Virus record (IMG/VR): IMGVR_UViG_3300030099_003764
DNA from: an uncultured virus (IMG/VR IMGVR_UViG_3300030099_003764)
Lineage: Duplodnaviria > Heunggongvirae > Uroviricota > Caudoviricetes
DNA length: 64,000 bases
Direction: 5' to 3' (one strand)
Of the stretch, positions 11,401 to 60,780 are shown piece by piece. The first letter of the stretch is position 1. The number at the start of each line of letters is the position of its first letter. Below the pieces are notes generated by a model. The model worked only from the letters and a program-made list of their open reading frames with translations. It made no database searches and was not told where the DNA came from. The position numbers were made by a program, and so were the translations under genes.

Positions 11401-14400
11401 ACTATTGGTTCAAGTGTCGAAGTAAAAATATTAGAAGAAGATACGACTATTGGTACTGCCAAAACAACCCATGAATTAAATCTATTGAACGGGGGGCATT
11501 TACATAGCGGTAAAGTTATTTCATTATTGAGTCCTCATATATCTTCTTCAACAGTAAATAAAACATGCGTGTTTGACTATCCTTTAGTTAGCCATTATTC
11601 TTCTGATACCACTGTGAACGCATTTAGTTACAGTGAAAAGTATGGTTCTTCCTATTACAGAATAATTAATTTAGAGAAAGGAAACTACAATAAAACGGAG
11701 TTACCTATTTCGGACACAACCGTTGAGTCTAAGAATTACTATGCTGATATTCCGAGCAAAATTAAATACTACGCTTCTGCGTTTAAGCCGCCGCCAATGG
11801 CCGCAAAATATTCTTCAGTATATTATGACATAAAAGTGAGAGTAAATAAAACAGACTCAAACACAGAAATACACCCTCTTGTAGAATCAAGAGGATTTAA
11901 GCCTGTTTCGGGTTCTAAGTTTTGGGATAGTACAATACACAAGAAAAACGGAACCGCAGAAAGTGTCTATTTGCCACCTACACCTAAATATGCTGATGCG
12001 ACTGAGTTCTTTTTTCTTGATAGAGCCTCCTTTGGTTTTTATGGAGGGCCTTGGAAAACAAAAGACCTATTAAACTTAATAGACCCTAAAGTAGCAAGAA
12101 TGTTTTTATTTTGCAATTCTGATTTGTTACCATATTCTTCAGAAAGATATGATAGTTTAATGTATAGTGGACAAACAAGAGATGTTTCTAATTATAATTT
12201 GATGCTACTAAAGGAACCGACCAGCGATGGTACTTTTGAAGCAAAAGATACAATCAATGGGACTACAAGAATAACTCAAAATGATTCAGATTATTTATCC
12301 TTAAACATAAAAGCAGGTTCTAAAACATTAAGCGACTTGAAAAGATTCTCTTTGATGCGTTTGACTGAAGTAGTTTATGATTGGTCTTTTAATCAAATAG
12401 ACCCCGAAAATGTTATTTCTGAAGAAAGAGTAATACCAAATGTGCCCCTTTTCGATAATACCATAGTTGCAAGCGGAGTTAATATAACAAGCATTAGCGG
12501 TAAAGTAATAACATTAGATGCAAGTGCCTCAAGTTTCATAGTTTATCAAGAATCCATAATTGTTGATTCAAAAGGAAGATTTATGGGAGAAGTAAATACA
12601 ACGACATCAAGTGCGCCATTTACAATAACCTGTTTTGATGAAGTAATGAAAACAAATGGTAATGCTTACTATACAGGACAGTTGTATTATATTGCTTCAA
12701 AAACCGTAGGGGCAATTGAAGTTCTTCATGGAAGAGGTAAAGAAAAATCATTTAAGGGTGCTGAAGAGATTCACATGCTTAAAGGAGTTATTTCCAACGG
12801 AGTAGACGGTGCTAAGTTTGGTGATTCCGGTTCTGATATTCAGGCTATTGCTAATGCTGATTTAGATAATATTTCGGGAAGTACCAATAGTGAAAGAAGC
12901 GATTATAACATATTTTTACCGCCAACCTTTACAGATAACAATGTCGTAGATGAGAGTTCAAGTTTCGGCTTCTATTATTCAAGAATAATGAAATTAATAG
13001 GGGATATGTCAGCGTCTAATTCTTCTGCGAGTATTGCCGCAAGCGATACATTATACAAAGGGATGCTACCAATCTTCTTCAAAGGATTCAGTATAGAAGA
13101 AGGAAAGGCATCTTTTGAAGATGGTATGGTTGGTGCATACATTAAATCCACAGGTCTTTTAGATGGTTTAACCGCTTGTAATGGTGTTGTTGCAAGTTGT
13201 GGAACGGCTTTTAATGCGTTTGAAAATAAACAATCATCTGCCACTTATTCTACGGATGATTCCGGCGGTGTTTTAATGGGCTTTAAGCCGAGATTATACA
13301 TAGACTCCGCAGAAATATCCGGTGTCGCTACAAATAAGTCAGTTGGTGATAGGAATGTGTATAGGTATAATATCCCAATAGGAACGGGAAGGTCAGTTAA
13401 TAAAAGTATTGGTAGTGGTGGAGATGTGTATAGAACATGGCTAACTATGGTAGACTTAACCGGCTGTTATTTAATAACCGAAAATAGTCAGATTCAACCT
13501 GTTTCTGATGGAGGCGGAAGAACCGGTATTAATTCCTCACCGCTTATTGATGCACAGTCAATAAGCGGTGTGGTTCCAAGTTTAGTGTATGTGGTTTCGC
13601 ATGAAGTCGATACTACCAACACTACTGAAACACACATAATAACTACTGATTCAGCACTTTCCGCAGGTTTTTATAGAATTATGCAACCTAATCATACCTG
13701 CTTTTATGACTATTCTCCTAAAGAAATAGTATTGAATGAGGTTTCCCCTAAATATACTAAAAAACCATTTAGTGATGAAATGTATTCGGCTCATAGCACA
13801 TGGGCTATTAGAGATGGCTATACAGGGCCAAGAGGCTCAAGAGCAACAACAGGAACAGGTGAAGCAATTCTTTCTATGTATGTAGCGATAGATATAGACG
13901 CACAAAGCGACAGTGATTTAGTAGTATTGAGAGATGTAACTAAAATGTCCTCTCTATTAGACCAAACAAGTTACTCTATGGCTATTTCAGATGGTGACAA
14001 TACTATCAAAAGCGTAGTAAATTATTCAGTAGATGATGTTAATACTAACTTAAAGTTTAGTGAAATAAAAGAAATGTTAGGTGTCGTTTCTATTTCTGAA
14101 ATAATGACCTTAACTGTTGATAATCCTAATGAAGATTTATCGGGTTATAAAAGAGGTTTAATTGGTAGTGTTGTTAATATTTGTGATGAAGCAGATACTT
14201 TAATTAATAATCTATTAGAAGAAAACGACATAGTTTTCGACAATACAGAAAATACTACCGACTCCGTATTCTTAGCACCTAATTTCCAAGAAACAGATTT
14301 AATGGCAGCAATTAACTATGTGGCAGAGAGAAAGGATAAAACATTTATTTTTGAAGATGGCACTTTTAAAATCAAAGATAAAAGTAGTGACGATTTCAAA

Positions 14401-15084
14401 ACAGGTTATTTCATTAATGATGTTGGAGATATAGAATTATACGGCTATGATAAAGAAGAAGATATGCTTAATTTCTATAATGAAATAGTAGTAAATGGTA
14501 AAAAACACAAATCAAGAAGAAAAGATGATTCAAGTATTAAAGCAATAGGAAGAAAAACTTTAGTGGTCTATGATACAAAACTCACAACAAAGGATGAAGT
14601 AGACCAAAAAGCAAACTCTTTACTTGCTTTGCATACTTCTCAAAATACAATGATAACAATTGAAATAGGACATAAGAATATTTCTCAACTAAAATCAGGA
14701 GATATTGTTGAATTAGAAATAGATAGAGAAGATATTCCAAGAAACGCCTACATAGTATTACAGATAAAGCATCTTCTTACAGGTAACATGGAAGTACAAT
14801 TAGGAAGATATAGTCTAAACATAGAGGATAGATTAGCGGATTTAGCCATATCCATAAAAGACCTAAATGCAGATAATTCACAGACTGAAGATGAATCTAC
14901 ATTAACTCATACTGAAATAAATCAAATAAAAATAAAACCTATTAGATTGTTAATTAGAGAAAGAAAAAGCAACGGAGGGGTTGTGTTTGGATTTGGGGCA
15001 ACTCTAAATACCAACAGTCGCCCATTAGGATTCGGGCAAAGCATCGGTGTGACGCACACAACATTATTGGAGGAAGAGTATTGA
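8428..15084 (+). CDS. Very large tail/baseplate protein (2218 aa)
   Basis: S/T/D/N-rich beta protein; C-terminal 'NEIVVNG...SIKAIGRK...LKSGDIVEL...YIVLQIKH' resembles tail hub (Tal/gp27-like) domains. Confidence 0.7.
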   Translation: MTRIFAESNEVVTEAVNTNSNTTLSNVAGVYYIGMGVTGTDIPDNTYVSATALGSNQVTISNDATDSNPITATFNKTNYNVPTNPKFRTFGAYSGSERLYTIIYGDATNTSDTIAVQGSGSTREYSNLETTEGFRIKNYHPNTFTGINLSTVNLTTHNYFVLIHSDNHLLHHFAKVTKINTDDSLGDSFEFTPSLGTEIEEGTKFMVFKGPSVSSNVFAISAGIKRELQDSLVCAGPLFYFFDDELDKEGQLDHNTKYFQRFIGSTSVTTISPTIHNTFVTASDNGFIIKDYSKYTMNVKMVDNLKDLDYPAYIENFANNPSALPQEYDSPDYTIFTTPNVFTDYNDCFPNARRDGDLDVHPLSDISYTGPIRYVHYDFSPTKANKAYNTFDLVLEESIGKRGSYVEGKAVDNKRILKQKNSVFDKLRVRHRLHRGNFNDWFALKATVKQNTTTANEYTFTTEYDLSELLNDGDEVRIGSHIYIIDNIDGINNSGTTGKEQDITFRAERRTETETIFASASYTLAANAVIYRRAWNVNDSTLLTNFDILENRNSNLYVKLISEEFGFLEASVTDSDSNKQLLTLQFDSDTQVNNTNRSISILDYMDGSYYIEVEKFSGVIEKLKSYKDKDTGQSFLDYSGRSDIRKLLGPSINKNTLHSQDIIYSTNSMFNIGTDLNSGTITKCTFDDDEVTFTNSCTGDLQVGDKLFCVYGGHLTIAYIGQVKTIDNGTTVTLEENARAEVKSPAEAVFYTREKHYMFNKALSHNRFMTSCSDLSGASGKGLFFDSGVVINSDGSEGSTLINSSSVNTPKSVGYHLDNIMKVDSINFKSIFSSTPSGKNDGFFQARLHNNASSRTYTDIDTINTLLDFNILGITTEEKTSIIEVAPHLPLTLGRVDINYANTLNTIFDSDLLGTTSTATTSKTYIRVSNSDTTALSSTSAERKHYGKPVYAGEDGEEVFIGFFVNAFLGNNSINSGNGTDDIIIMLDRPVTIGSSVEVKILEEDTTIGTAKTTHELNLLNGGHLHSGKVISLLSPHISSSTVNKTCVFDYPLVSHYSSDTTVNAFSYSEKYGSSYYRIINLEKGNYNKTELPISDTTVESKNYYADIPSKIKYYASAFKPPPMAAKYSSVYYDIKVRVNKTDSNTEIHPLVESRGFKPVSGSKFWDSTIHKKNGTAESVYLPPTPKYADATEFFFLDRASFGFYGGPWKTKDLLNLIDPKVARMFLFCNSDLLPYSSERYDSLMYSGQTRDVSNYNLMLLKEPTSDGTFEAKDTINGTTRITQNDSDYLSLNIKAGSKTLSDLKRFSLMRLTEVVYDWSFNQIDPENVISEERVIPNVPLFDNTIVASGVNITSISGKVITLDASASSFIVYQESIIVDSKGRFMGEVNTTTSSAPFTITCFDEVMKTNGNAYYTGQLYYIASKTVGAIEVLHGRGKEKSFKGAEEIHMLKGVISNGVDGAKFGDSGSDIQAIANADLDNISGSTNSERSDYNIFLPPTFTDNNVVDESSSFGFYYSRIMKLIGDMSASNSSASIAASDTLYKGMLPIFFKGFSIEEGKASFEDGMVGAYIKSTGLLDGLTACNGVVASCGTAFNAFENKQSSATYSTDDSGGVLMGFKPRLYIDSAEISGVATNKSVGDRNVYRYNIPIGTGRSVNKSIGSGGDVYRTWLTMVDLTGCYLITENSQIQPVSDGGGRTGINSSPLIDAQSISGVVPSLVYVVSHEVDTTNTTETHIITTDSALSAGFYRIMQPNHTCFYDYSPKEIVLNEVSPKYTKKPFSDEMYSAHSTWAIRDGYTGPRGSRATTGTGEAILSMYVAIDIDAQSDSDLVVLRDVTKMSSLLDQTSYSMAISDGDNTIKSVVNYSVDDVNTNLKFSEIKEMLGVVSISEIMTLTVDNPNEDLSGYKRGLIGSVVNICDEADTLINNLLEENDIVFDNTENTTDSVFLAPNFQETDLMAAINYVAERKDKTFIFEDGTFKIKDKSSDDFKTGYFINDVGDIELYGYDKEEDMLNFYNEIVVNGKKHKSRRKDDSSIKAIGRKTLVVYDTKLTTKDEVDQKANSLLALHTSQNTMITIEIGHKNISQLKSGDIVELEIDREDIPRNAYIVLQIKHLLTGNMEVQLGRYSLNIEDRLADLAISIKDLNADNSQTEDESTLTHTEINQIKIKPIRLLIRERKSNGGVVFGFGATLNTNSRPLGFGQSIGVTHTTLLEEEY

Positions 15085-23888: not shown

Positions 23889-24770
23889 TTACCACCAATC
23901 GTCTAAGTTTTTCTGTATTTTACCGGTTCTTATGCTTGACAAATCCCACTCCATAGCCTTGTAAATAGGCTTTGCCTTCTCTACTACCTGTTCGGCGTAG
24001 TGCTTCCAATCGGGTACATAACCCTTGAAATCTGCGTAGGTTGTGCCGGAAACATATTCTGCATTTCTCTTCTCTCCTGTTAATGGATGAGTATATGTTT
24101 TATGCAAATGCTTTGCTTTTAGAAATAAATAGGAATCATCAAACTCCACATTAGTATGTTCCCAAGCATAAAGCATACCTGCAATACCTTCACCAAGAGA
24201 AGGTTTTTTGTTTTCTAAGGTAACAAATAATTTACCTTCTGTGCCACATTTTTTGCACCATTTGATAGGCTCTTTGATGTGATGTTTTAATCCGCAATCG
24301 GGACACTTAACAGTCAAACGATTGCTTCTTAGTCTTGCTCTTTTGATAATGGATTCAATATCTATTTTACCTTCTAATACAGAAACATAAGTATCGTGCA
24401 GATACCTATTGATTTCTTCTTTAGATTTCTGCTGAACCCACATCTTCAAAGCAGTAGTTTGAACATCTTTTGCTAATTTAGTTTCACTAACTCTTTTAGC
24501 AGTAAAACCTGTCATAGTGAACTTTTGTTCATCCAGCCACTCTCCATCATCCCATGATACTAAACCAGCATTGCGATTTTTTGTAGTACCAACACCTAAT
24601 GCTGAGAAGTATTTTTCAAACTCCAAAACGACAGGGTGTTCGTCTAAACCTAATACATTAGGAAAATGTTCTCTAACACTTGCTTCTATTTCTTTGATAG
24701 CAGTTTGAGCCTTTTCAACTGAATCAATCTGAACATAGATTGAGTCTGTATGCCCATAAACTACTTTCAT
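23889..24770 (-). CDS. polB: Family B DNA polymerase, C-terminal subunit (motif C + thumb) of a split enzyme
   Basis: Begins 'YGHTDSIYV' (motif C variant), 'LEFEK', 'KNRNAG'; contains a CPDC...CKKC insertion. Confidence 0.85.
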   Translation of the reverse strand: MKVVYGHTDSIYVQIDSVEKAQTAIKEIEASVREHFPNVLGLDEHPVVLEFEKYFSALGVGTTKNRNAGLVSWDDGEWLDEQKFTMTGFTAKRVSETKLAKDVQTTALKMWVQQKSKEEINRYLHDTYVSVLEGKIDIESIIKRARLRSNRLTVKCPDCGLKHHIKEPIKWCKKCGTEGKLFVTLENKKPSLGEGIAGMLYAWEHTNVEFDDSYLFLKAKHLHKTYTHPLTGEKRNAEYVSGTTYADFKGYVPDWKHYAEQVVEKAKPIYKAMEWDLSSIRTGKIQKNLDDWW

Positions 24771-25763: not shown

Positions 25764-27416
25764 TCATATTTTCATCTCCTTTGCCTTAAATGCGGCTAAT
25801 CTGATTGCTTCTCTAGCACTTGCAGTAATAGAAGCCGCTAATTTAGGATTAGCCCAACTAAAGCCGGTATATCCGATAATGCCATAAAAAGATGCAGATA
25901 GCCTTTTTACTGCCATTTGGTTATTATACCATTTTCTAAACTCATCTTCAGTTTGAGCATTCTTCATATTGCTCTTGTAAGAGTTTCTTAACTCCTTCAA
26001 TTCTAATACTGCTCTTGGCAAAACGCCTAATTTATCAGTCTTGAAATAAACCATATCTTCTGCCACAGGCTCGCTGAAATCTCTTGGTGTTAAGATATTT
26101 ACTGCAAACTCTGTTGGTTTGTCTGAAATGGTTTCCCAACTAATATTCCTTGCAATCATCATTGAAGGATATAGGCCAGCAAAATCAAAAGCGGCTACAT
26201 TAAGATGTAGCCCGTTTGTATCTTCACTTAACGGGTCATAAATCATAGCCCCTTGATATGATTGCTTCTTCTCATTTTTGTTTCCTGTTGGTGCTTTCCA
26301 ATAGGCATTTCTCATAAAGTAAATACTACCCATATGCGAAGCATAGAAACAAGCATCAAATGGTGCTTTCAATAATCGTTGTAGAGCAATAATCGCTTCA
26401 CTACAATAATTAGTTTCATCTATTTCAACAATCAATTCTACATCTTTTAGAGCATACTGTGAATAAGTTTCTGAATCTTCTAACCAACCTCTACGGTAAA
26501 ACTCGTTAGGGTCAGGAAACTTTTCTGAAACTAACTTCTTCTTATTAAGTAAAGATTCAGATACATAATCCAAAGATAGAGAAGGCAATGTTCCTCTTTG
26601 CGAGTCATTCCATTGTCTTTCAAAAGCCATGTCTAATGAGAGGGTTATGCGACCCCCTATGGGCTGTTCTATTGGCGAGAATCCTTTTTCACCTCTATTG
26701 TATTTGTAGCCATCCTTAGTCTTTTTTAGACCATCTACACGGTTAATCGGTGACATTCTATTAGGGTTAATTCCTAACGCACAACATCTTTCAAGAAGTT
26801 TAGGTATATCTGCAAAGTTACCGAACCAAGCAATTAGCATGTCAGGGTCTTTGTCTATCATAGTATTAATGAAATGTTCAAGCATTTCTTTTTCAGAATT
26901 AAAAGCATACATTTGTTTATATTGTAAAGTGGAGAATCCGTTAGATTTTCCATTAGGAAACCAAATCCATTGGTAATACTTCTCATCATAATTATCATAC
27001 ATTACAATAGTAGTAATTTCATTATGGTGTTCTCCGCCTTGTTGCCATTCCATATCCCAATACCATTTACGCATTTTATACTCCGGCATTTCGTGTATTT
27101 CATCTACTGCGTATCTGAATGTATATGGTACATCAGCCTCATAAGTCTTAGAAAACTTAGATTTTGCTTTTCTAATATCAAAGGAGTTTTCAACATAAAC
27201 CTTCTTCAATCGTTCACCATCTATATTTACCCAATCACCCGTTTCATACTCAAACTCACGCTCAATGTATTTGTTAGGTGCATAGGTACGATGTTCAGTT
27301 TCACTGTTATTAACAAAAAAGTACGGTCTGAAAGGAATTAATTCAAACTTCTTTTCACCGTTCTCTCTCCATGATTTGTATATATGTTTGCCATCTAAAC
27401 ATCTACTGATTATCAA
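25764..27416 (-). CDS. polB: Family B DNA polymerase, N-terminal subunit (3'-5' exonuclease, motifs A and B) of a split enzyme
   Basis: Exo 'WDME', 'YALKD'; motif A 'DFAGLYPS'; motif B 'KRLSASFYG'; ends just before motif C. Likely TTG start at 27416 (ORF track extends to 27470). Confidence 0.9.
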   Translation of the reverse strand: MIISRCLDGKHIYKSWRENGEKKFELIPFRPYFFVNNSETEHRTYAPNKYIEREFEYETGDWVNIDGERLKKVYVENSFDIRKAKSKFSKTYEADVPYTFRYAVDEIHEMPEYKMRKWYWDMEWQQGGEHHNEITTIVMYDNYDEKYYQWIWFPNGKSNGFSTLQYKQMYAFNSEKEMLEHFINTMIDKDPDMLIAWFGNFADIPKLLERCCALGINPNRMSPINRVDGLKKTKDGYKYNRGEKGFSPIEQPIGGRITLSLDMAFERQWNDSQRGTLPSLSLDYVSESLLNKKKLVSEKFPDPNEFYRRGWLEDSETYSQYALKDVELIVEIDETNYCSEAIIALQRLLKAPFDACFYASHMGSIYFMRNAYWKAPTGNKNEKKQSYQGAMIYDPLSEDTNGLHLNVAAFDFAGLYPSMMIARNISWETISDKPTEFAVNILTPRDFSEPVAEDMVYFKTDKLGVLPRAVLELKELRNSYKSNMKNAQTEDEFRKWYNNQMAVKRLSASFYGIIGYTGFSWANPKLAASITASAREAIRLAAFKAKEMKI

Positions 27417-27417
27417 T

Positions 27418-28218
27418 TCAATCTCCCCTTGTATAAGGTGCTTTAACTGCCACCTTAGAATGACCCACAATCAATAGCGGAAAATCATCCTTAACATAGA
27501 AATTAATCAAAGGCTGGTCTTTGAAAAACTTATGAAGTGGCCCACTATATTGCAATGTAGCAGGTTCTCCTAAGCCATGAAGAGGCCTAATTGATTGACA
27601 AAAACTGTTAGCAGTACCGTTATTACTATCAACTTGCAATGCACATTGAAGTCCTTTTTCTTCATCCGGCGGGAAATAATCTAAAAGATAAACTCCACTC
27701 TTGACTAATTCACAACCGCTAATTGCATCATCAAATACTTCTGATGTTAGTTGAAAAGCCCCCTCAAAGGACTTAGAACCAAAATCAGGAATTGTTCGAG
27801 GAACAGTTTCAAACTCTATGCCTTTAATCATCTGCCTAATTCTTGTTATTGCATCAATGTTAGGATGCTGAACCGCCGCAGGTATAGTGGCGGTTTTATA
27901 ACCGCTACCAACATGCAAACAATCCTCATATGCTACTGATATTGAATCACCACTAAACTTCTTTAGATAAGGTACGATAGTTTCTGCACTGCCTGTAAAT
28001 GAACCATTACTATGTCCTTCTACTTCAAGACTTAATTTAAGTCCACAGGTAGTATCTCCATTCCATAATGTTAAATCATTACCTTCTAATTCCATATATA
28101 CATACGGGCTAAGTTTAGAATTGGAAAATCCTTTGTCTCCCAAATACATACCTTTACCTTGTATGTCCTCTAATGCTTTTGTCAATACCTTTGGTGCTAC
28201 ATTAAAACTCATATTCAT
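27418..28218 (-). CDS. Putative sliding clamp (PCNA-like)
   Basis: ~265 aa with a two-domain repeat pattern, C-terminal 'DDFPLLIV...VAVKAP'; adjacent to PolB and near RFC. Confidence 0.6.
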   Translation of the reverse strand: MNMSFNVAPKVLTKALEDIQGKGMYLGDKGFSNSKLSPYVYMELEGNDLTLWNGDTTCGLKLSLEVEGHSNGSFTGSAETIVPYLKKFSGDSISVAYEDCLHVGSGYKTATIPAAVQHPNIDAITRIRQMIKGIEFETVPRTIPDFGSKSFEGAFQLTSEVFDDAISGCELVKSGVYLLDYFPPDEEKGLQCALQVDSNNGTANSFCQSIRPLHGLGEPATLQYSGPLHKFFKDQPLINFYVKDDFPLLIVGHSKVAVKAPYTRGD

Positions 28219-53941: not shown

Positions 53942-54418
53942 TCACTCTTCAGTATCAGAACCAAGAAGTGACTCTATTGAGCCATCCCAAGCACCGGTCT
54001 TGAATTGCTTTGAAAGAGCATTTCGCACTTTCTTAGATTGTGCCTTAGCATAATCTTCAGCCGATTCAAAAGTTCCGCCGCCGGACTTAGCATGTTTTAG
54101 CGTAACTGCGCTAATAATGCCATCGTAGTTGTAATACGCCATTGACGCTTCTTCTACGACATTACAAATCCTGTCAATTGCTACTCTAATAGCGGCAGGT
54201 ACAGCACTTCTTTGTCCTCTTCGCCCAAGTGGAGAACCGTCACGGCCCTTTAGTAATGCCTTTAGAGCATTAGCCGCAGCATCTCTTTCATTTGGGTTAT
54301 CTTGTCCGACTTGAAGATGCAATTCAACAACTTGTTTCAAAGCACCATCAAGGCTTTCATCTGCATTTAGGTAATCTGTGACCTCGATAACGAGGCTATC
54401 CCACTTTACTTCATCCAT
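53942..54418 (-). CDS. Paralog family member 1 ('WDG' family, unknown function)
   Basis: Shares 'KW...ER...SP...KHxKSGGG...WDG' with 58183 and 59838; start reassigned to MDEVKW. Confidence 0.7.
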   Translation of the reverse strand: MDEVKWDSLVIEVTDYLNADESLDGALKQVVELHLQVGQDNPNERDAAANALKALLKGRDGSPLGRRGQRSAVPAAIRVAIDRICNVVEEASMAYYNYDGIISAVTLKHAKSGGGTFESAEDYAKAQSKKVRNALSKQFKTGAWDGSIESLLGSDTEE

Positions 54419-54578
54419 ATTATCATATCCTAACCCCCGACATAGGGGGCACAAACTCTCTATGTTCCACCCATATATAAGGAGAGGGAAATGCTTTTTC
54501 AGATATTAGATTCCATTTTGAAAGTGCTTGAAATCGGGGGTTTATGTTTTTATTACTAAATTAATTGCTTATTTTCAA

Positions 54579-54903
54579 CAGTGGAAACATTATTCCACCG
54601 GAAAAAAAACCGGAAAAAAAATCTATCGAGAAACTCAAGGGCTATGCGACACAACCATGAAGATTCTTAGGGTTTTGACATTATTCCATTATTCCACTGT
54701 AAATACCCCCCCTACTCTCTCTATAAATCTGACATAGCCCTAAAGAAACAAAGGGGAAATGCGAGGGGGTGTGTGAGATTGTATTAGAATAGAATAGAAT
54801 AATAGAATAATAGAATATTATTAAAACTAAGGGGTTGTGTTACACAACCCTCCAATTTCTCAAAGTTTAGTCTACTATGAAGTGGAAACTTCAGTGGAAA
54901 CAT
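54579..54903. repeat. Non-coding region with short direct/inverted repeats; candidate replication origin
   Basis: CAGTGGAAACAT x2 (54579, 54892); ATTATTCCA x3 facing tandem TAGAA(TAA) repeats (54785-54816); perfect palindrome GGGTTGTGT-T-ACACAACCC (54832-54850). Confidence 0.4.
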
Positions 54904-55057
54904 CTTTTGGATTATATATTATACTGTATAACATATGTATATGGTATGATTATAACTTATATTATACGGCCAATTGAAAGACATACTTACAAACATAGTC
55001 ATTTTATGGTAGTTAAAAATTAATACCAAACAATCGCTCGATAAGACTATTGTTCTT

Positions 55058-55088
55058 GGTTATTCCCGCTTTGTTAAACGGAATAACC
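55058..55088. repeat. Cassette boundary half-site (right hairpin only)
   Basis: GGTTATTCC-cgCTTTGttaaac-GGAATAACC. Confidence 0.7.
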
Positions 55089-55091
55089 TTG

Positions 55092-55132
55092 AAAAAAAGG
55101 AGGCAAATGGGGTTTTACCCCCATTTACCCCC
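55092..55132 (-). terminator. Hairpin + T-tract terminator
   Basis: AAATGGGG...CCCCATTT with A-run 55092-55098. Confidence 0.6.
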
Positions 55133-55159
55133 TATTAGCCGCCGTATTTACACCACCTC

Positions 55160-55552
55160 CTATTCGTCATTCATTTTCTTTCCTTTAGTAAAATGCTCTT
55201 TGTACTCTTCAGAATAGTTTCCGTGATAAACTGCTTGCTCGTATTCATCTTGTGATATGAGCATGTTTTTGATATATTCAGCAATCTCTTCAAATCTCTC
55301 CGATTCGACACACCATATATTCGCTATTGTTTCACAGTATTCTAAATAATTGAATATGCTGGTAAAGTCCTTGATTGACTTATTCTCCATACCGCCCTCT
55401 CTACTTCTACCCATGTGATTAGTTGGTACTATGTGACAGCCGAACTTATCAGTAGGAAAGTCCTCTTCATAGCATTCACAATTCAGTCCCGCTTCTTTAC
55501 TGCATTTCTCACAATCTGTCTTATCTCCAAATGTTCTATTCATGTCTTTCAC
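55160..55552 (-). CDS. Hypothetical acidic protein (cassette 1)
   Basis: 130-aa ORF with its own TATA-like element (~55642) and terminator. Confidence 0.6.
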   Translation of the reverse strand: MKDMNRTFGDKTDCEKCSKEAGLNCECYEEDFPTDKFGCHIVPTNHMGRSREGGMENKSIKDFTSIFNYLEYCETIANIWCVESERFEEIAEYIKNMLISQDEYEQAVYHGNYSEEYKEHFTKGKKMNDE

Positions 55553-55650
55553 CTTTCTCTAAAGTGCCCCGTTCAGAAGAATCCGATTATTTTCCGTAAT
55601 TTTCCGATAATTTTCCGAACTGTTATTATCAAAAATATGGGTATATGCAA

Positions 55651-55707
55651 GGTAGTCAAAGTAACTACCATATGGTTGGTAGTGTTCTTTGAAGGAACGG
55701 TACGACC
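55651..55707. repeat. Double-hairpin cassette boundary element 1
   Basis: GGTAGT-CAAAGTA-ACTACC ATAT GGT...CTTTG...ACC. Confidence 0.85.
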
Positions 55708-55736
55708 ATAAAAAAATGGAACAGGTGATGGCCGAT

Positions 55737-56132
55737 TTACTCGGCCACCACCTTTACTCCATCAGGTACCATTTTCAATATAACATGAATTGCATGTAGA
55801 AATCTTTGCTTCATGTCAAATGTTGATGCTGCTTTCCATGCCTCAATATTATGTAGTAGCAATTGCTTGAAGTCACCAACATTATCAAAATCAATCACAT
55901 TCATAATTCCTTCATTTTCCACTCTTGATTGAAAGTCGTTAAACTCGGTTTCCCTCTGTTCTTCTTCTTCTTCTCTACTCGGAATGCCCTTCTTTTCACG
56001 AATACATGCACCACATGTAGCAATAATCTCATAATCAGCATATTCGTCCTCATAGTCACCTAGTCCATAATGGCCGATTGTTACTTGTTCACCGCATCCG
56101 TCTTCACTGCATGTTATATAATCCCATGTCAT
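55737..56132 (-). CDS. Acidic zinc-finger protein (cassette 2)
   Basis: 'CSEDGC...CGAC'; promoter ACCTTATAT abutting boundary element 2. Confidence 0.65.
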   Translation of the reverse strand: MTWDYITCSEDGCGEQVTIGHYGLGDYEDEYADYEIIATCGACIREKKGIPSREEEEEQRETEFNDFQSRVENEGIMNVIDFDNVGDFKQLLLHNIEAWKAASTFDMKQRFLHAIHVILKMVPDGVKVVAE

Positions 56133-56159
56133 ACTAATACGGAATAATTCTACATATAA

Positions 56160-56218
56160 GGTAACATCAAAGTTAATGTTACCATATGGTTGTAATCACT
56201 TTGAATAGCATTACAACC
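56160..56218. repeat. Double-hairpin cassette boundary element 2
   Basis: GGTAACAT-CAAAGTTA-ATGTTACC ATAT GGTTGTAAT-caCTTTGaatagc-ATTACAACC. Confidence 0.9.
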
Positions 56219-56234
56219 TTGAAAAAAAATAATG

Positions 56235-56679
56235 AAAAAACGCCGCCTACTTTGAATCTCGGACTCACAACGCTCAATCATCGTTTGTGGCTGAAGTCAT
56301 CCTCTTGACCGGTACCAGAGGATAAGGTTTCAGAACCGCACTAAACCTATGAGCGAATAACTGCCTTTTTCGTTTCGGCTTTGTTTCTTCATATGAGAAT
56401 GTGAAAGGTGGTGAATCGGATTGTGTACCGATAACATTGATAGGACTAACTCCCACTGATTTAACAACGCTCGCTTTATTCAATTGAGCCAATGTACCAC
56501 GATTATCCATGTTATCAGTAAATAACACCCCTTTTGAGGTTGAAGGACTTTCTTAGAGGCAACTCCTAATCCATTTGGACATCAGAATGTGCATAAGCCG
56601 AAACTACTCGGAACCGTGTGCGTTATCCCCGTTGTAAAAGGATATTCCGCCATCACCGTGTCGAGGTGCCCCCCGACAT
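56235..56679 (-). ncRNA. Candidate ~440-nt structured non-coding RNA (cassette 3)
   Basis: Minus-strand TATA (ACCCTATATA 56701-56710) and T-runs at 56222-56240; no credible ORF; 10-bp long-range helix 56372-56381/56595-56604 plus several local hairpins. Confidence 0.55.
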
Positions 56680-56707
56680 TAATTTATGACGGTAATAGGA
56701 TATATAG

Positions 56708-56748
56708 GGTCTTCAAAGTTAAGACCATATGGTTGTACTTTGAAAACC
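56708..56748. repeat. Double-hairpin cassette boundary element 3
   Basis: GGTCTT-CAAAGTT-AAGACC ATAT GGTT-gtaCTTTGaa-AACC, flanked by divergent TATA elements. Confidence 0.9.
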
Positions 56749-56778
56749 CTATTATAACCCCCTACATCGTATATTAAC

Positions 56779-57255
56779 ATGGTAAAAGTAACAACTACGA
56801 CTAACCCACATGTGCATGATGATAATACAGTGAGCAAAACAACAACTTTCGAGTGTGAAACGAAAGAAGAGTTTGTGAAAGTCTGGAATGATAGAAAATA
56901 CATCCCAAAGTCAAGGAAAATCAAGTGGTCGGCAAATATTGACAAACTTGAAGTGTATTCGGAAGAATGGATTAATTTTGAAGATGTCTTATTTCCTCCT
57001 GAAGTTAAAGAATACATTCCTACTGAAGTAGATAAGAGGGCGGCTAAGATTCTTCAAATCGAAACATGGATGGAAAACAACCCTCAATTTCACGAAACCG
57101 AGAATTGGCCTATTATTGAATACTGCATTAGCAGAATGAATGTCGTTAGTTGTAATGATAGTAGTGAATTGTTTGATAATTTGATGAGTCTATTTATTCT
57201 CAATTCAAGACACTATGAACCTGCATGTTTCTACAGGGGGGATGAAGAAGAATGA
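56779..57255 (+). CDS. Hypothetical protein (cassette 4, probably leaderless)
   Basis: 158-aa ORF starting ~25 nt after TATTATAA (56750-56757). Confidence 0.65.
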   Translation: MVKVTTTTNPHVHDDNTVSKTTTFECETKEEFVKVWNDRKYIPKSRKIKWSANIDKLEVYSEEWINFEDVLFPPEVKEYIPTEVDKRAAKILQIETWMENNPQFHETENWPIIEYCISRMNVVSCNDSSELFDNLMSLFILNSRHYEPACFYRGDEEE

Positions 57256-57401
57256 CCTGTGATGATTGTGGCAGTTCAAATACTGAAATCGAAGAAGGAC
57301 ATTGGGGCCAATGGTGGATTTGTTGTAATGAATGCGATTGGGTTATGTTGTATAACACTTATGTTAAGGATAATGAACCGGATAACTATGGAGATGATTG
57401 A
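57252..57401 (+). CDS. Small zinc-ribbon protein (49 aa, not in ORF track)
   Basis: MTCDDCGS...ICCNECDW; ATGA overlap with upstream stop. Confidence 0.55.
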   Translation: MTCDDCGSSNTEIEEGHWGQWWICCNECDWVMLYNTYVKDNEPDNYGDD

Positions 57402-57587
57402 ATGATAAAGGACGATTATGTATTGAAGAAGAAGTATGATGAAAGAGTTGCTGAAGGTAACGCATGGTGGCACAATTATTGTGTTACAATGAATAAGTTC
57501 ATGAAAGCCAACGGGCACAAGGTTGCCATTGGTTGTGCTTTGAATCCAAATGAGCCTTTGACATCTGAAAGAAGATATGTTGAGTAA
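57402..57587 (+). CDS. Hypothetical protein
   Basis: 61-aa ORF followed by a terminator. Confidence 0.55.
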   Translation: MIKDDYVLKKKYDERVAEGNAWWHNYCVTMNKFMKANGHKVAIGCALNPNEPLTSERRYVE

Positions 57588-57589
57588 AG

Positions 57590-57623
57590 GGGGTAGGGGC
57601 GAAAGCCCCACCCCTATTTTTTT
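57590..57623 (+). terminator. Hairpin (GAAA loop) + T-tract terminator
   Basis: GGGGTAGGGGC-GAAA-GCCCCACCCC then T7. Confidence 0.75.
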
Positions 57624-57631
57624 AGGAACGG

Positions 57632-57690
57632 GGTATTTCAAAGTACATACCATATGGTTTGAGAGATACTTTGAATAATTCTCTCAAACC
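57632..57690. repeat. Double-hairpin cassette boundary element 4 (between convergent units)
   Basis: GGTAT-ttCAAAGtac-ATACC ATAT GGTTTGAGAGA-taCTTTGaataat-TCTCTCAAACC. Confidence 0.9.
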
Positions 57691-57702
57691 CCAAAAAAAT
57701 AG

Positions 57703-57744
57703 AAAAAACCGGATAGGGGCCAATGTAAGTCACCCCTATCCGGT
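57703..57744 (-). terminator. Hairpin + T-tract terminator
   Basis: ACCGGATAGGGG...CCCCTATCCGGT with A-run on +. Confidence 0.7.
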
Positions 57745-57756
57745 AGTAAATCCAAC

Positions 57757-58017
57757 TTACTTGTCGGATTCATCAATTAATGCACGAATCTTCTTCGCTT
57801 CAGTCTTGAATGCCTTCATTGCTGGCATTACTTGACCTAATACTCTGAATCTGCAAGTACCGTCCAAATCTAGTTGGTCAACTCTTAGACTGTATTTGTC
57901 GGTCATTTTCGCTAAGAATCTAAGGATTCTTGGTGCTTCTTCTGCTGCTTGCCCACAAAACTCGGCATAAATCCTACCGTGCCCTGTTTCTATGTCTACA
58001 TCCATCTTTAACGACAT
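57757..58017 (-). CDS. Hypothetical protein (cassette 5)
   Basis: Start reassigned to MSLKMDVD after a GAGGT RBS; the longer ORF-track version runs through boundary element 5. Confidence 0.6.
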   Translation of the reverse strand: MSLKMDVDIETGHGRIYAEFCGQAAEEAPRILRFLAKMTDKYSLRVDQLDLDGTCRFRVLGQVMPAMKAFKTEAKKIRALIDESDK

Positions 58018-58061
58018 GTTACTACCTCTTGGTACTATTATGGGATGATAGGCCTTATATC

Positions 58062-58118
58062 GGGCCTTCAAAGTTAAGCCCATATGGTTGTAACTTTGTT
58101 CATGCGAAGCACTTGACC
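58062..58118. repeat. Double-hairpin cassette boundary element 5 (between divergent units)
   Basis: GGGCCTT-CAAAGTT-AAGCCC ATAT GGT-tgtaaCTTTG...ACC. Confidence 0.85.
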
Positions 58119-58182
58119 CTATATAGGCAAATGGACTCAATATTAATACCTCAAGGGGATTGAGGATAGTAACGGAGAATAG

Positions 58183-58707
58183 GTGATTACTATGATTATG
58201 GACGAAGATAAGTGGACTGAAAGGTCAACAGAGATAAGAGCATGGCTTGAGCATAATGACGCTGGCGCAATGAACGCACTAATTGAGCAGACATTGAACG
58301 CTGGTGATGCAGCAAGTAGTGATGATGAAAGAAACCGTTTTTGGGAAGCAGTGAGAGCAATTTGCAAGACTCTCCCAAACTCGCCAATAAAAAAGGGTCG
58401 TGGCTCAACATTAGAACCTGCGATTCAAGCGTGTGTGGATGGTGTAGTGAATCGCATTCAAAATGCCTTTGCAACCATTTCTGACGCTGGACTAATACTC
58501 GAAGTAATGCTACCACACGGTAAAACCGGTGGCGCATATGCTGACATTGACGCATTCTCAAAGGATATGGCAATGAAGGCACAAAGAGTCCTAAAGGCAG
58601 CATTGAAAGATGGCCGTTGGGACGGAACAATGAACGAAGATAACTTGACCGGTTTAACTCCACCTGTCAAGGAATCTGACAGTGAATCTAAGGAGGAAAC
58701 TGTCTGA
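58183..58707 (+). CDS. Paralog family member 2 (cassette 6)
   Basis: Close paralog of 59838-60326; GGTGAT RBS suggests the start is the ATG at 58192 or 58198. Confidence 0.75.
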   Translation: MITMIMDEDKWTERSTEIRAWLEHNDAGAMNALIEQTLNAGDAASSDDERNRFWEAVRAICKTLPNSPIKKGRGSTLEPAIQACVDGVVNRIQNAFATISDAGLILEVMLPHGKTGGAYADIDAFSKDMAMKAQRVLKAALKDGRWDGTMNEDNLTGLTPPVKESDSESKEETV

Positions 58708-58813
58708 TGCTATCCACAATCCCCTTGTAGGCCCATTACATTCATTTCGGCGGGCAACTCATACCAATTAAAATTAGAATACCTGAATTGTGTCAATGTG
58801 TAGGCCGGTAAAT

Positions 58814-58876
58814 CGCATGAGAATTAAGCAGAAGAATGAAACCTCGCTTAATTCTCATGCGGTAGCCCTTTTTTTT
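58814..58876 (+). terminator. Long hairpin + T-tract terminator
   Basis: CGCATGAGAATTAAGC/GCTTAATTCTCATGCG 16-bp stem followed by a T-run. Confidence 0.7.
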
Positions 58877-58882
58877 ATTCAA

Positions 58883-58949
58883 GGTTGAGCCAAATGCTAC
58901 GCATTATCCAAAGTGTGTCACAACCATATGGTTTGCTTTGTAACAAACC
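58883..58949. repeat. Double-hairpin cassette boundary element 6 (between convergent units)
   Basis: GGTTG...CAAAGT...CAACC ATAT GGTTTG-CTTTGtaa-CAAACC. Confidence 0.85.
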
Positions 58950-58960
58950 CGATAGCCATT

Positions 58961-59008
58961 AAAAAAAAGGAAAAGGGGGAAAACGCCGTTTTTTCAGCGT
59001 TTTCCCCC
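58961..59008 (-). terminator. Hairpin + T-tract terminator
   Basis: GGGGGAAAACGC...GCGTTTTCCCCC with A-run on +. Confidence 0.7.
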
Positions 59009-59017
59009 GATTTCTAT

Positions 59018-59614
59018 TCATGCACGGTCAAACTCGTACATATCTACTAATTTTGGTGGCTGGATAGGGTGATATGCACCGCTATACTTGATACCTTCAA
59101 TTGTGCCATCCCAAACACCGTTCTTCAGAGAATCGACTAATCTCTTCTCTAATTTGTCACAGTATCTCTTTAGCCATCTATCAAACAATACCGCCTCATC
59201 CCAATCCTGAGTATCAAACTCACTTATGCGCCTACGGTTTATGATAAATGGATTAAATGCCAAATTGTGTAAATTGATATTCGCCCATGTTTCCATTGAT
59301 TCTCTGAATTGTTGAATCATATCATCAATAGTGGCTTTGACATCTGCTGGAATAATAGTATGCCTTCTAGTTACCAAATAATAGAAAGGTGTTGCTTTCA
59401 TTAGGTTTTGTAGAGCAAGCCAATTACATTGGACTTGGTAATCTACTCTTCTCGTCCAATCAGCCATGTCATTCAATGAATCTTGGATAATTGTCATTAG
59501 GGTCAAAACGAGTTCTGCCCTCCAATCCTGTATTTCATCAAATAGCCCTGTTTTGTGAGCATGGGCTAATGCGTCTATCTTTTTCATCAGTGCTTGTGGT
59601 GTTATGTTCTTCAT
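59018..59614 (-). CDS. Divergent paralog family member 3 (cassette 7)
   Basis: C-terminal 'LKNGVWDGT' and 'IPADVKATIDD' segments resemble the family. Confidence 0.6.
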   Translation of the reverse strand: MKNITPQALMKKIDALAHAHKTGLFDEIQDWRAELVLTLMTIIQDSLNDMADWTRRVDYQVQCNWLALQNLMKATPFYYLVTRRHTIIPADVKATIDDMIQQFRESMETWANINLHNLAFNPFIINRRRISEFDTQDWDEAVLFDRWLKRYCDKLEKRLVDSLKNGVWDGTIEGIKYSGAYHPIQPPKLVDMYEFDRA

Positions 59615-59653
59615 AATACTCCCTTAGTAATATGCGAAAAATCGGCATATTAG

Positions 59654-59724
59654 GGTAGTTCAAAGTACACTACCATATGGTAATAAAATATTTATGAAAT
59701 AAATACGCTTTGTGTTTTACTACC
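59654..59724. repeat. Double-hairpin cassette boundary element 7
   Basis: GGTAGT-tCAAAGtac-ACTACC ATAT GGTAATAAAA...CTTTG...TTTTACTACC. Confidence 0.85.
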
Positions 59725-59837
59725 ATAAAAAAATAAGACTACAAAGCGGCACAAACTGAAATCAGATATTGTTATTGGTATTGTTATTTCAGTTTGTACC
59801 GCTTTGGGTGAATATAAGGCTACGGGGGAAATCAGCA

Positions 59838-60326
59838 TCATTCTTCTTCTTCAGCCTCCATGCCGAAGTTTTGTGTGGCTAAACCGGTACGAGTACCGTC
59901 CCACACATTATCTTTCAAACGCCTCTTGAGCGAGTTCACAATAGTAGAAGCCATGTATGCCGAATATTCATCAGCATCACTGAATAGGCCTCCGCCGGAT
60001 TTACCGTGCTTAGTTAGTAACATCGAAATGTTACCAGAAGCAAAAAAATCGGATGCGGCTTGTGAAACTTCATCCGATATTGAATCTAGTACGGCTTGAA
60101 TCTCAGGTGGGAGTTGGGAACCCCTACCTTTCTTAATTGGTGAATTAGGCAAGGTCTTACAAATAGCCCTTACTGCCTCCCAAAATCTTTCTCTTTCTTC
60201 ATCACTTGAAGCAACTTTACCTGCTTCAAGTGTTTGAAGAATCAAATCATTCATAGCACCTGCATCATTTTCCTTTAACCATGATACAATCATAGTTACC
60301 TTTTCATTCCATTTTGTCATATCCAT
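59838..60326 (-). CDS. Paralog family member 4 (cassette 8)
   Basis: Shares the identical 24-aa block RFWEAVRAICKTLPNSPIKKGRGS with 58183-58707. Confidence 0.75.
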   Translation of the reverse strand: MDMTKWNEKVTMIVSWLKENDAGAMNDLILQTLEAGKVASSDEERERFWEAVRAICKTLPNSPIKKGRGSQLPPEIQAVLDSISDEVSQAASDFFASGNISMLLTKHGKSGGGLFSDADEYSAYMASTIVNSLKRRLKDNVWDGTRTGLATQNFGMEAEEEE

Positions 60327-60394
60327 AAGTAATCAACTCCTTGAATAATACTTCATTCCCCCGAAGCAATACTATGATGTCAATTTGCCTATAA

Positions 60395-60635
60395 GGTAGA
60401 CCATTCGTACCTCATTCTCCAAAGTTCGCTTACCATATGGTTGTGTAGTAATTCATCTATATAGATGGGCTTGTATTAAAATACAATGTAAGATTACAAT
60501 ATTAAAAGATAACACTTTAATTGAGTTGAAGGGATTATTTAGATGATTTTTGCTTGTGTTCGATTAAATCTATATATTTTAAATTGATTCTATATAGACC
60601 CATATAGCAGATTATACAACCATATGGCTTTGTCC
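60395..60635. repeat. Boundary elements 8 and 9 enclosing an AT-rich ORF-less unit
   Basis: GGTA...CAAAGT...TACC ATAT GGTTGTGTA (60395-60447) and TATACAACC ATAT GG-CTTTGT-CC (60613-60635); the two cores are inverted relative to each other. Confidence 0.8.
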
Positions 60636-60780
60636 AAATTTTTATTTTAGTGTATTAACATTAAAATGTCTGCTTTTATGTATAAATCATCGAATATCAG
60701 CATTTGAATATTAAAGATTTCGCCATTAGGCCGCCATTATTATGTACTATGGCATACTCGGTTAATACGGGATAAGAATA

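Follow-up and report, generated by a model that had tools for sequence, protein, structure and literature searches.

The manA RNAs (Rfam RF01745) were put forward as candidate riboswitches, located in most cases in 5' untranslated regions (UTRs), as stated in the available text of the original study (PMC2864571), and the corresponding figure legend adds a question mark to their pseudoknot (Weinberg et al. 2010, PMC2864571). According to the accessible part of a later preprint, which reports cryo-EM assemblies, manA RNAs form RNA-only homo-oligomers, namely pentamer-based decamers, octamers, and a 60-mer cage, through kissing loops (bioRxiv 10.64898/2026.07.01.735769). The class has been an orphan "riboswitch candidate" since 2010, and the cages of the 2026 preprint are described there in vitro and without biological context. 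The subject of this work is a cassette found in an uncultured virus (IMG/VR record IMGVR_UViG_3300030099_003764), which occupies positions 56232–56678 on the minus strand of the 64,000-nt stretch analysed here (the window). This cassette is best explained, with a probability of roughly 0.7, as a free-standing minus-strand gene for a manA-type structured non-coding RNA, which as a free RNA probably self-assembles.

The manA-type core and its homologs

An earlier inspection of the letters of this stretch (the sequence-only reading) had proposed that a structured RNA of ~440 nt with several domains takes the place of a protein gene in the cassette, and had suggested Infernal searches against Rfam as a check. 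At gathering thresholds, no Rfam family matches the window. In a permissive search, positions 56405–56678 of the minus strand are matched by manA with 52.0 bits, compared to a gathering score of 55.2 (E 2e-12 in a search of 631 nt), and the match spans model positions 1–192 of 192. The check thus returned a structured RNA, if one below the gathering score of its family. When the whole 64-kb window is searched, manA (E 2.1e-10) is the sole Rfam match at E<=0.01. The alignment to the model contains inserts of 81 and 46 nt, and the core extends over 274 nt compared to the 192 positions of the model.

The core consists of the following elements, all on the minus strand:

56405–56678, manA-type core, with P1, a pseudoknot, P2, a multi-stem junction with enlarged inserts, and a terminal hairpin (RF01745 match, covariation, and contigs from RNA libraries)
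56659–56678, P1 hairpin (helix 1; 93.0% of cells paired, 3/4 pairs changed on both sides)
56653–56657, 5' strand of the pseudoknot, GGUGA
56410–56414, 3' strand of the pseudoknot, UCACC (helix 2; 92.9% of cells paired)
56498–56618, junction-closing helix, CACGGUU at 56612–56618 with AAUCGUG at 56498–56504 (helix 5; 7/7 pairs changed on both sides)
56415–56432, terminal hairpin (helix 12; 96.6% of cells paired, 4/5 pairs compensated)

Several features of the manA consensus are found in this core. P1 is followed by five bases that pair with the 3' tail, P2 aligns as GGAAUA ... GGGGAUAAC with the internal loop GAAUA ... UAAG and a G-C-rich distal stem, the junction is closed by a helix of the expected 6–7 bp (helix 5), and the terminal hairpin holds a GGUA...AAUCC loop followed by a CCACC tail. 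On the other hand, the two short junction hairpins of manA are missing, and three other covarying hairpins (helices 6–8) stand in their place, within the enlarged 81-nt insert that the junction-closing helix encloses. Judged on sequence and model comparison, the RNA is a divergent, enlarged variant of the known manA class and not a new class.

Homologs were collected in several ways. Searches with the flanking proteins and the translation of the open reading frame (ORF) of the cassette yielded one closely related viral contig (loci L002, L004, L005, and L203), and a total of 79 loci around relatives of the neighbouring UvrD-type helicase, plus loci with the motif of the boundary elements described below, were examined. 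A profile built from three sequences located homologous cassettes in 19 distinct contigs, and a later profile added L259 and L261. An exact-motif scan of metagenome contigs provided 23 more contigs, all of which were matched by the profile (23/23); 19 of these 23 are long enough to reach the 3' strand of the pseudoknot, and in them it lies at the expected offset. Homologous cassettes were counted in 18 viral contigs besides the window and in the 23 metagenome contigs. The core is present in 14 of the 79 helicase-anchored loci, or in 15 counting L177, which indicates that the cassette is accessory, and it may lie on either strand relative to the helicase, depending on the contig. Outside this group, blastn of 55000–58000 against the phage collection gave no match, nor did the nearest virus record (G001, a 12.9-kb fragment), and tblastn of the helicase against cultured phages reached at most 35% identity, so that no cultured relative is recognised.

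The manA scores of these relatives are similar to that of the window. Four of eight loci score 47.4–52.4 bits, with L031, L051, L044, and L199 giving no match at E<=0.001. In a second set of 11 loci, which partly overlaps with the first (some contigs are the same), seven score 41.9–53.3 bits over the full model. When four whole related records were scanned with the manA model, three showed this same site below the threshold, with no other copy and none above the cut-off.

The closest relative, L002, has a cassette 92% identical to that of the window by column, where ATCGG..CCGAT is replaced by ATTGG..CCAAT and one segment is swapped for unrelated sequence that nevertheless forms a stem; RNAalifold on these two sequences gives 7/119 pairs changed on both sides. 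The broader comparison was made on an alignment of 18 distinct cores (alignment A3), from which L262 was dropped, its core being identical to that of L214, and which excludes L183, L199, L201, and L044, where the core is missing. Of the 58 pairs that RNAalifold predicts on this alignment, 40 show compensatory changes. After manual addition of the pseudoknot, standard pairs make up 93.0% of 1061 cells, compared to 42.5–46.2% when the partners are slid by one to three columns, both-side changes are seen in 42/60 pairs, compared to 16–23, and the covariation score is 0.558, compared to 0.085–0.133; 0/500 shuffles reach any of these measures. In this MAFFT alignment the window and L002 are one column off at P1 and at the pseudoknot, an offset that counts against the structure. 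The two helices of P2 (helices 3 and 4) are paired in 100% and 93.5% of cells. For the pseudoknot, a direct check showed that the five bases after P1 have their exact reverse complement at the homologous 3' site in 19/19 sequences, in three types: GGUGA/UCACC (n=3), GGGAU/AUCCC (n=15), and GUUGG/CCAAC (n=1). The covariation among homologs that the sequence-only reading had asked for is therefore strong, and its structured RNA is borne out.

The strand follows from the same alignment. In the paired columns, G-U cells number 117 and A-C cells 14, which argues for an RNA read from the minus strand and makes a structure at the DNA level unlikely. Similarly, the variant 56512 T>C, present in contigs assembled from RNA libraries, turns an A-U into a G-U pair only in the minus-strand sense. 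Folded as a single sequence, the minus strand reaches -133.7 kcal/mol (z -2.16, 3/100 shuffles as good) and the plus strand -116.4 kcal/mol (z -1.38). Single-sequence folding is only weakly better than chance, and it is the comparison of homologs, not the energy, that shows the structure to be real. Within the enlarged junction arm, at 56570–56590 (minus strand) and in the homologs (columns 113–135 of the core alignment), a small covarying hairpin is flanked by a conserved internal loop in which UGAUG faces UGAG; this loop could correspond to one of the known turn motifs of RNA, although a k-turn is not claimed.

All five pairings named in the sequence-only reading are present in the window, and their fates differ. 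TGTCG..CGACA is helix P1 and ATCGG..CCGAT is the terminal hairpin, both kept and covarying in the homologs. The 10-bp long-range stem, in contrast, did not hold: it is complete (10/10) only in the window and L002, L198 reaches 8/10 without compensation, ten others having both segments retain 2–3/10, and its exact pattern was found in the L002 contig only. This stem would join a hairpin strand of the core that is present only in the nearest kin with the conserved AAGCCGAAAC of the 3' domain. ACTGAT/ATCAGT was likewise lost, with 6/6 pairs in the window only and 0–5/6 in 17 others, whereas CGCTCA/TGAGCG is retained in the window and L002 but not elsewhere, the segment being variable. Two other candidates were tried and rejected. 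A hammerhead is contradicted by CUGAUAA in the window, where L002 has CUGAUGA, and by the lack of an Rfam match, and words resembling RNase P (GAAAGUCC, GGCUUAU) are not conserved among the homologs.

The cassette as a probable transcription unit

Positions 55650–60450 of the window form an array of small cassettes, in which a palindromic element, TTCAAAGT..AACCATATGGTT..ACTTTGAA, serves as separator. The half-site pattern CAAAGT-N4-12-CCATATGG occurs 12 times between 55657 and 60440, compared to 0.00 expected (100 shuffles), and elements at 56168–56203 and 56714–56742 stand on either side of the RNA cassette. Across 55657–60440, at least eight palindromic boundary elements are built around CCATATGG, with arms that end in ACC(N)TATA boxes. 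Those at 57639–57673 and 58909–58931 are devoid of TATA arms and sit between convergent terminator hairpins, so that not every copy of the element is a working promoter. The features around and within the RNA cassette, beyond its core, are the following:

56712–56745, no strand, boundary element 3, the palindrome given above, with pattern matches on both strands at 56714 and 56725
56700–56714, minus strand, predicted archaeal-type promoter, a purine-rich stretch plus ACCC-TATATAT (motif spacing in homologs)
56274–56528, minus strand, 84-aa ORF, judged to be no gene (2-nt deletion in L002 and an RNA-library contig, no Pfam or PHROG family, no shared ORF)
56232–56392, minus strand, conserved 3' domain with a variable interior (pairing in a second alignment, A4)
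56299–56323, minus strand, apical hairpin of the 3' domain, ATCCTC..GAGGAT, whose loop holds the self-complementary GGUACC and ACCGGU at 56306–56316 (sequence)
56222–56240, minus strand, oligo-T runs T6 and T8, likely terminator of the long form (sequence)
56160–56216, no strand, boundary element 2, which heads the next cassette, a 131-aa ORF at 55737–56132 (sequence and pattern match)
56409–56657 and 56250–56399 (X12), 56457–56677 (X13), 56410–56668 (X17), and 56387–56604 (X18), contigs from RNA libraries

Element 3 also serves a divergent plus-strand operon (56779–57587), and element 2 holds a TATA box for the gene it heads. In L002 the boundary elements are near identical to those of the window, whereas the left-hand cargo, the gene after the cassette, changes from the 131-aa ORF to one of 94 aa.

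The minus-strand TATA box and T-runs reported from the sequence alone are indeed there, as TATATAT at 56700–56706, T6 at 56235–56240, and T8 at 56222–56229. In the homologs, the motif (A)ACC(N)TATA(T/C) was found by a regular expression 50–55 nt upstream of the 5' strand of the pseudoknot in 17/19 sequences; in the other two the expression picked the central palindrome instead. The centre of the TATA box lies ~25 nt upstream of the first base of P1, a spacing from TATA to start that is typical of archaeal promoters, and oligo-T is sufficient for termination in archaea. A scan for sigma-70 promoters was uninformative (25 found, compared to 21.7 expected).

Expression of the cassette is partly shown by RNA libraries. 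Six such libraries contain part of 55700–57300, two of them (X19 and X20) with small shares, and the other four runs, from three studies, were compared as assembled contigs. These contigs cover the core at 95–100% likeness. The contigs of two studies end at 56409 and 56410 without loose ends, which is a weak hint of an RNA end, and that of X13 stops at 56677, a single base away from the predicted start. The four runs have no contig on 55700–56239 or 56726–57103, and depth varied from contig to contig; missing cover and contig depth, not being countable, were not used as evidence.

The core ends in the tail ..CACCACC UUU, which is followed by a short U-rich linker and then by the 3' domain, so that the whole cassette (56232–56678, minus strand) comprises a manA-type core plus a second conserved domain, in agreement with the multi-domain RNA of ~440 nt proposed before. 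In the window the 3' domain is closed by AUGAAGAAAC (56383–56392) with GUUUUUUCAU (56232–56241), inside which GCC at 56377–56379 pairs with GGC at 56245–56247. The corresponding alignment (A4) comprises 17 sequences with both signature motifs; L214, L042, L180, L218, and L177 lack the motifs and were excluded, and no row was obtained for L111 and L187. RNAalifold closes the domain by GAAAC with GUUUC/GUUUU plus GCC with GGC, and GCC/GGC becomes GGC/GCC in five sequences. With the 5' hairpin of the domain added, 96.4% of cells pair, compared to 33–53% when slid, and the covariation score is 0.292, compared to <=0.073. This hairpin is missing in the window, L002, and L212, and has a UGGCCA loop in the other 14. 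The 3' domain has no Rfam match.

The longest perfect palindrome of the 3' domain lies close to the middle of its variable interior in 15/17 domains, with ten different sequences. The 14-mers among these tips are rare in shuffled sequence (3 and 10 of 2000 shuffles), and a 10-mer and the 8-mers are seen in ~9–20% of shuffles; the tip palindromes are considered a lead, not a result. The 3' domain (GAAAC..AAGGCGAAAG ... GAGUAGCCGGAGUUUC) is also found after protein ORFs without a manA core, at L199 7402–7601, L044 2051–2254, L183 5805–6009, and L201 5956–6159, which points to a separable module. It stands beside the core in 13/18 core-bearing homologs, and a different 3' extension is attached to the cores of L214, L042, and L180.

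Another recurrent part of these arrays is a family of ~160–186-aa proteins without Pfam or PHROG match, whose paralogs in the window lie at 58192–58707 (plus strand), 59838–60326 (minus), and 53942–54421 (minus) and whose relatives share the motifs LRSTYWTAIRSIG and PHGRTGG. A member is encoded up to 1.5 kb downstream of the RNA cassette in 12/17 related loci. Since the family is multi-copy and none of its three paralogs in the window is adjacent to the RNA, this co-occurrence is read as array make-up and not as linkage.

Alternative explanations and mode of action

According to the explanation favoured here, transcription would start at ~56678, ~25 nt downstream of the TATA box in element 3, so that P1 would begin with the first base of the transcript. 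As the comparison shows, the 274 nt from 56678 to 56405 fold like manA, with P1, the 5-bp pseudoknot to the 3' tail, P2, the junction, and the terminal hairpin, and the 3' domain (56392 to 56232) forms a long arm with a self-complementary motif at its tip. Transcription would end at T6/T8, with a possible shorter form ending after the pseudoknot; the short form, with the core only, and the long form probably both exist, as the contig ends weakly hint. The RNA would act free and not as the leader of the next gene, and it would self-assemble into a multimer, by analogy with the manA cages, which makes self-assembly the most likely mode of action. As for its role, the RNA may also be any of those named in the sequence-only reading, namely a decoy, an anti-defence RNA, a ribozyme, or a guide.

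The least probable alternative is that the cargo is a protein, encoded by the sole sizeable ORF of the cassette (56274–56528, minus strand; 84 aa from GTG, or 78 aa from an ATG at 56510) behind a long 5' leader. This ORF is open in the window, and a back-translated search with it found one contig only, the closest relative, with 68% identity over residues 1–55. However, a 2-nt deletion shifts the frame in L002, the RNA-library contig from X18 has the same deletion, a possible ribosome-binding site is poorly spaced from the ATG, the translation matches no Pfam or PHROG family, no ORF in any frame is common to the 19 homologous cassettes, and substitutions arrive as compensatory helix pairs. The codon-pattern conservation that would have overturned the sequence-only reading is thus not found, its claim of a cassette without a protein gene agrees with these data, and the protein-gene explanation is close to refuted. 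Scarcely more probable is an element acting at the DNA level through its inverted repeats, as an origin or as a site of packaging or recombination, for instance, or else an RNA of the plus strand. The cassette does lie among palindromic boundary elements, and the tips of the 3' domain are perfect palindromes and hence the same on both strands. Nevertheless, the excess of G-U over A-C cells fits a minus-strand RNA only, the full-length manA match is on the minus strand, which also folds more stably, and contigs from RNA libraries cover the cassette. The cassette could also be a cis-regulatory leader or riboswitch, in which the core would sense a ligand and control read-through at the U-tract after the pseudoknot or at T6/T8, thereby regulating the 3' domain and the next gene. 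This is the role for which manA was put forward, usually in 5' UTRs, in the available text of PMC2864571; moreover, U3–U5 directly follows the 3' strand of the pseudoknot in most homologs, the RNA-library contigs of two studies end at this U-tract, and a same-strand gene usually follows, belonging to one family in 6/17 loci. The cassette does not, however, show the 5'-UTR position implied by the Rfam type of manA (Cis-reg): no ORF lies between the core and T6/T8, a separate boundary element with a TATA box precedes the next gene, and the following gene differs even between the closest relatives. Furthermore, the family that often follows is multi-copy, and its three paralogs in the window all lie apart from the RNA; relative to the helicase, the cassette is found in either orientation; and the 3' domain, which also stands behind protein genes, is no specific partner of the core. 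A riboswitch is therefore unlikely, though less so than a protein gene or a DNA element, and a free-standing, self-assembling RNA is favoured over it. Four points speak for an RNA that stands free: the predicted terminator comes before any ORF, a separate promoter element heads the next cassette, the following gene varies, and both orientations occur.

A different question is whether the 3' domain (56232–56392) belongs to the mature RNA, or whether the mature RNA consists of the core alone, with the domain serving the cassette system as a generic 3'-end or terminator module. The latter is a serious contender, rated somewhat short of even odds. The 3' domain follows ORFs without a core in L199, L044, L183, and L201, it ends U-rich, X12 assembled the core and the 3' domain separately with a break at 56399/56409, and the cores of L214, L042, and L180 carry another 3' extension. 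Against this, the conserved sequence (GAAACAAAGCCGAAAC, GAGUAGGCGGCGUUU) and structure of the domain exceed the needs of termination by oligo-T, and it accompanies the core in 13 of the 18 core-bearing homologs. A number of points also weigh against the free-standing, self-assembling manA-type RNA itself. Neither the window nor any relative tested reaches the gathering cut-off of manA, with three relatives of the 11-locus set at only ~20 bits and L031 without a manA match, and the two small junction hairpins of the consensus are unmatched and marked as non-pairs in the alignment. Published manA RNAs usually lie in 5' UTRs (PMC2864571, in the text available), most arrays are co-oriented, so that a same-strand gene usually follows the cassette, and a member of one multi-copy protein family directly follows it in 6/17 loci. 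The transcription start and the terminator are predicted only, and the RNA-library contigs carry no information on strand, ends, or level, in libraries of a kind that can contain DNA. Finally, self-assembly is proposed here by analogy, the enlarged loops need not keep the kissing contacts of other manA RNAs, and the tip palindromes are mostly 6-mers, which are seen in ~64–92% of shuffles (about 80%).

A tentative proposal goes further and is rated below the core-only view of the mature RNA: in viruses of marine group II archaea, a dedicated gene would encode an enlarged RNA of the manA type that self-assembles in the infected cell into an RNA-only shell or ring, with the self-complementary tip of the separable 3' arm linking protomers or particles. 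If this were true, RNA cages would be a working device common to viruses of bacteria and archaea, and the label "riboswitch candidate" would be wrong for at least this branch of manA.

The virus, its array, and known systems

The window encodes a family-B DNA polymerase in two ORFs ~1 kb apart (25764–27470 and 23889–24770, minus strand), together with Rep_fac_C (RFC), DNA_ligase_A (an ATP-dependent ligase), an ERCC4 nuclease, a class II ribonucleotide reductase, and GroEL (Cpn60). Group B magroviruses, as described in the available text of Philosof et al. 2017 (PMC5434244), possess this set, with an archaeal-type replication module that includes a split polymerase (group B1), RFC, and an ATP-dependent ligase, together with a ribonucleotide reductase (RNR), GroEL, tRNA-Leu, and tRNA-Arg. 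The same text lists for magroviruses a halovirus-like capsid, portal, and terminase, an archaeo-eukaryotic primase, and an MCM helicase, most of which need profile-profile searches (PMC5434244). In the window, only a tail-tube match was seen; adjoining this gene, a 2218-aa ORF (8428–15084, plus strand) has no Pfam match. The 64-kb window contains no tRNA genes, and, among the related contigs, L194 has tRNA-Leu and tRNA-Arg and L214 has tRNA-Leu. Judged by gene content, this is a magrovirus-like virus of group B, with marine group II archaea as its probable hosts.

The arms of the boundary elements resemble the TAnnTTTG box, and a Bacteroidota host was considered and dropped, as the gene content fits magroviruses. 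One exact-motif match, L262, is a 14.7-kb contig binned with the metagenome-assembled genome of an Altibacter sp.; since its core is identical to that of the viral contig L214, it is probably a viral contig mis-binned with a bacterial genome.

Some further observations concern the array and its surroundings. At 55575–55625, the leader of a 127-aa gene (55160–55543) holds a triple repeat of words like TTTTCCG(T/A)A (attttccgtaattttccgataattttccgaac), which is kept in L002 at 2880–2920. A 49-aa Cys-rich ORF (57252–57401, plus strand) weakly matches Lar, a restriction-alleviation protein, at an E of 0.0057 that does not reach the cut-off. Both edges of the array (54430–55050 and 60440–60780) are gene-free and AT-rich, with aatagaat repeats, ccggaaaaaaaa twice, and extra sites resembling CCATATGG; these stretches could be the ends of the array, or replication or packaging signals.

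What appears to be new relative to print, from sequence comparison, is a sub-threshold branch of manA with enlarged junction arms, an uncatalogued 3' domain, and a stand-alone gene in an apparent archaeal virus. Among the papers retrieved for manA, none deals with magroviruses, and some of the original marine manA sequences may already stem from such viruses; the magrovirus papers examined gave no mention of Rfam, non-coding RNA, ncRNA, riboswitch, or manA. A divergent manA branch with its own gene, a predicted promoter and terminator, and a presence in ocean RNA libraries provides a natural setting for asking what manA assemblies are for, in an apparent archaeal virus where leader regulation of the bacterial style is an unlikely role. 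It also adds covariation support for the pseudoknot that was question-marked in the figure legend of the original manA paper (PMC2864571), and the 3' domain represents a second conserved RNA module absent from catalogues.

The array itself recalls the PeSL promoter-terminator cassettes of T4-type phages, which, in the available text of the papers that describe them (PMC2839356, PMC4122927), likewise place short conserved regulatory repeats around small, variable, and mostly unknown genes, with constant repeats and a cargo that differs between close relatives. Unlike in PeSL, as far as these texts describe it, the repeat of the window is a palindrome around CCATATGG whose TATA-type arms fit archaeal promoters, and some of its copies sit between convergent terminators (57639, 58909). 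With GOLLD, ROOL, and OLE, large ornate non-coding RNAs that form homo-oligomeric RNA-only complexes (PMC12286853, in the text available), the likeness lies only in the kind of explanation: these families, all held by Rfam, have no sequence or model match in the window, and they are bacterial or phage RNAs.

The closest described system remains manA. Unlike its known members, the RNA of the window scores below threshold, has inserts of 81 and 46 nt where manA forms its two small junction hairpins, is followed by an extra conserved 3' domain, forms its own gene and not a 5' UTR, and is carried by an apparent archaeal virus and not by a cyanophage or a gamma-proteobacterium. Like them, it holds P1, the pseudoknot, P2 with GAAUA...UAA, the junction-closing helix, the terminal hairpin, and the CCACC tail, and a marine and viral origin is common to both.

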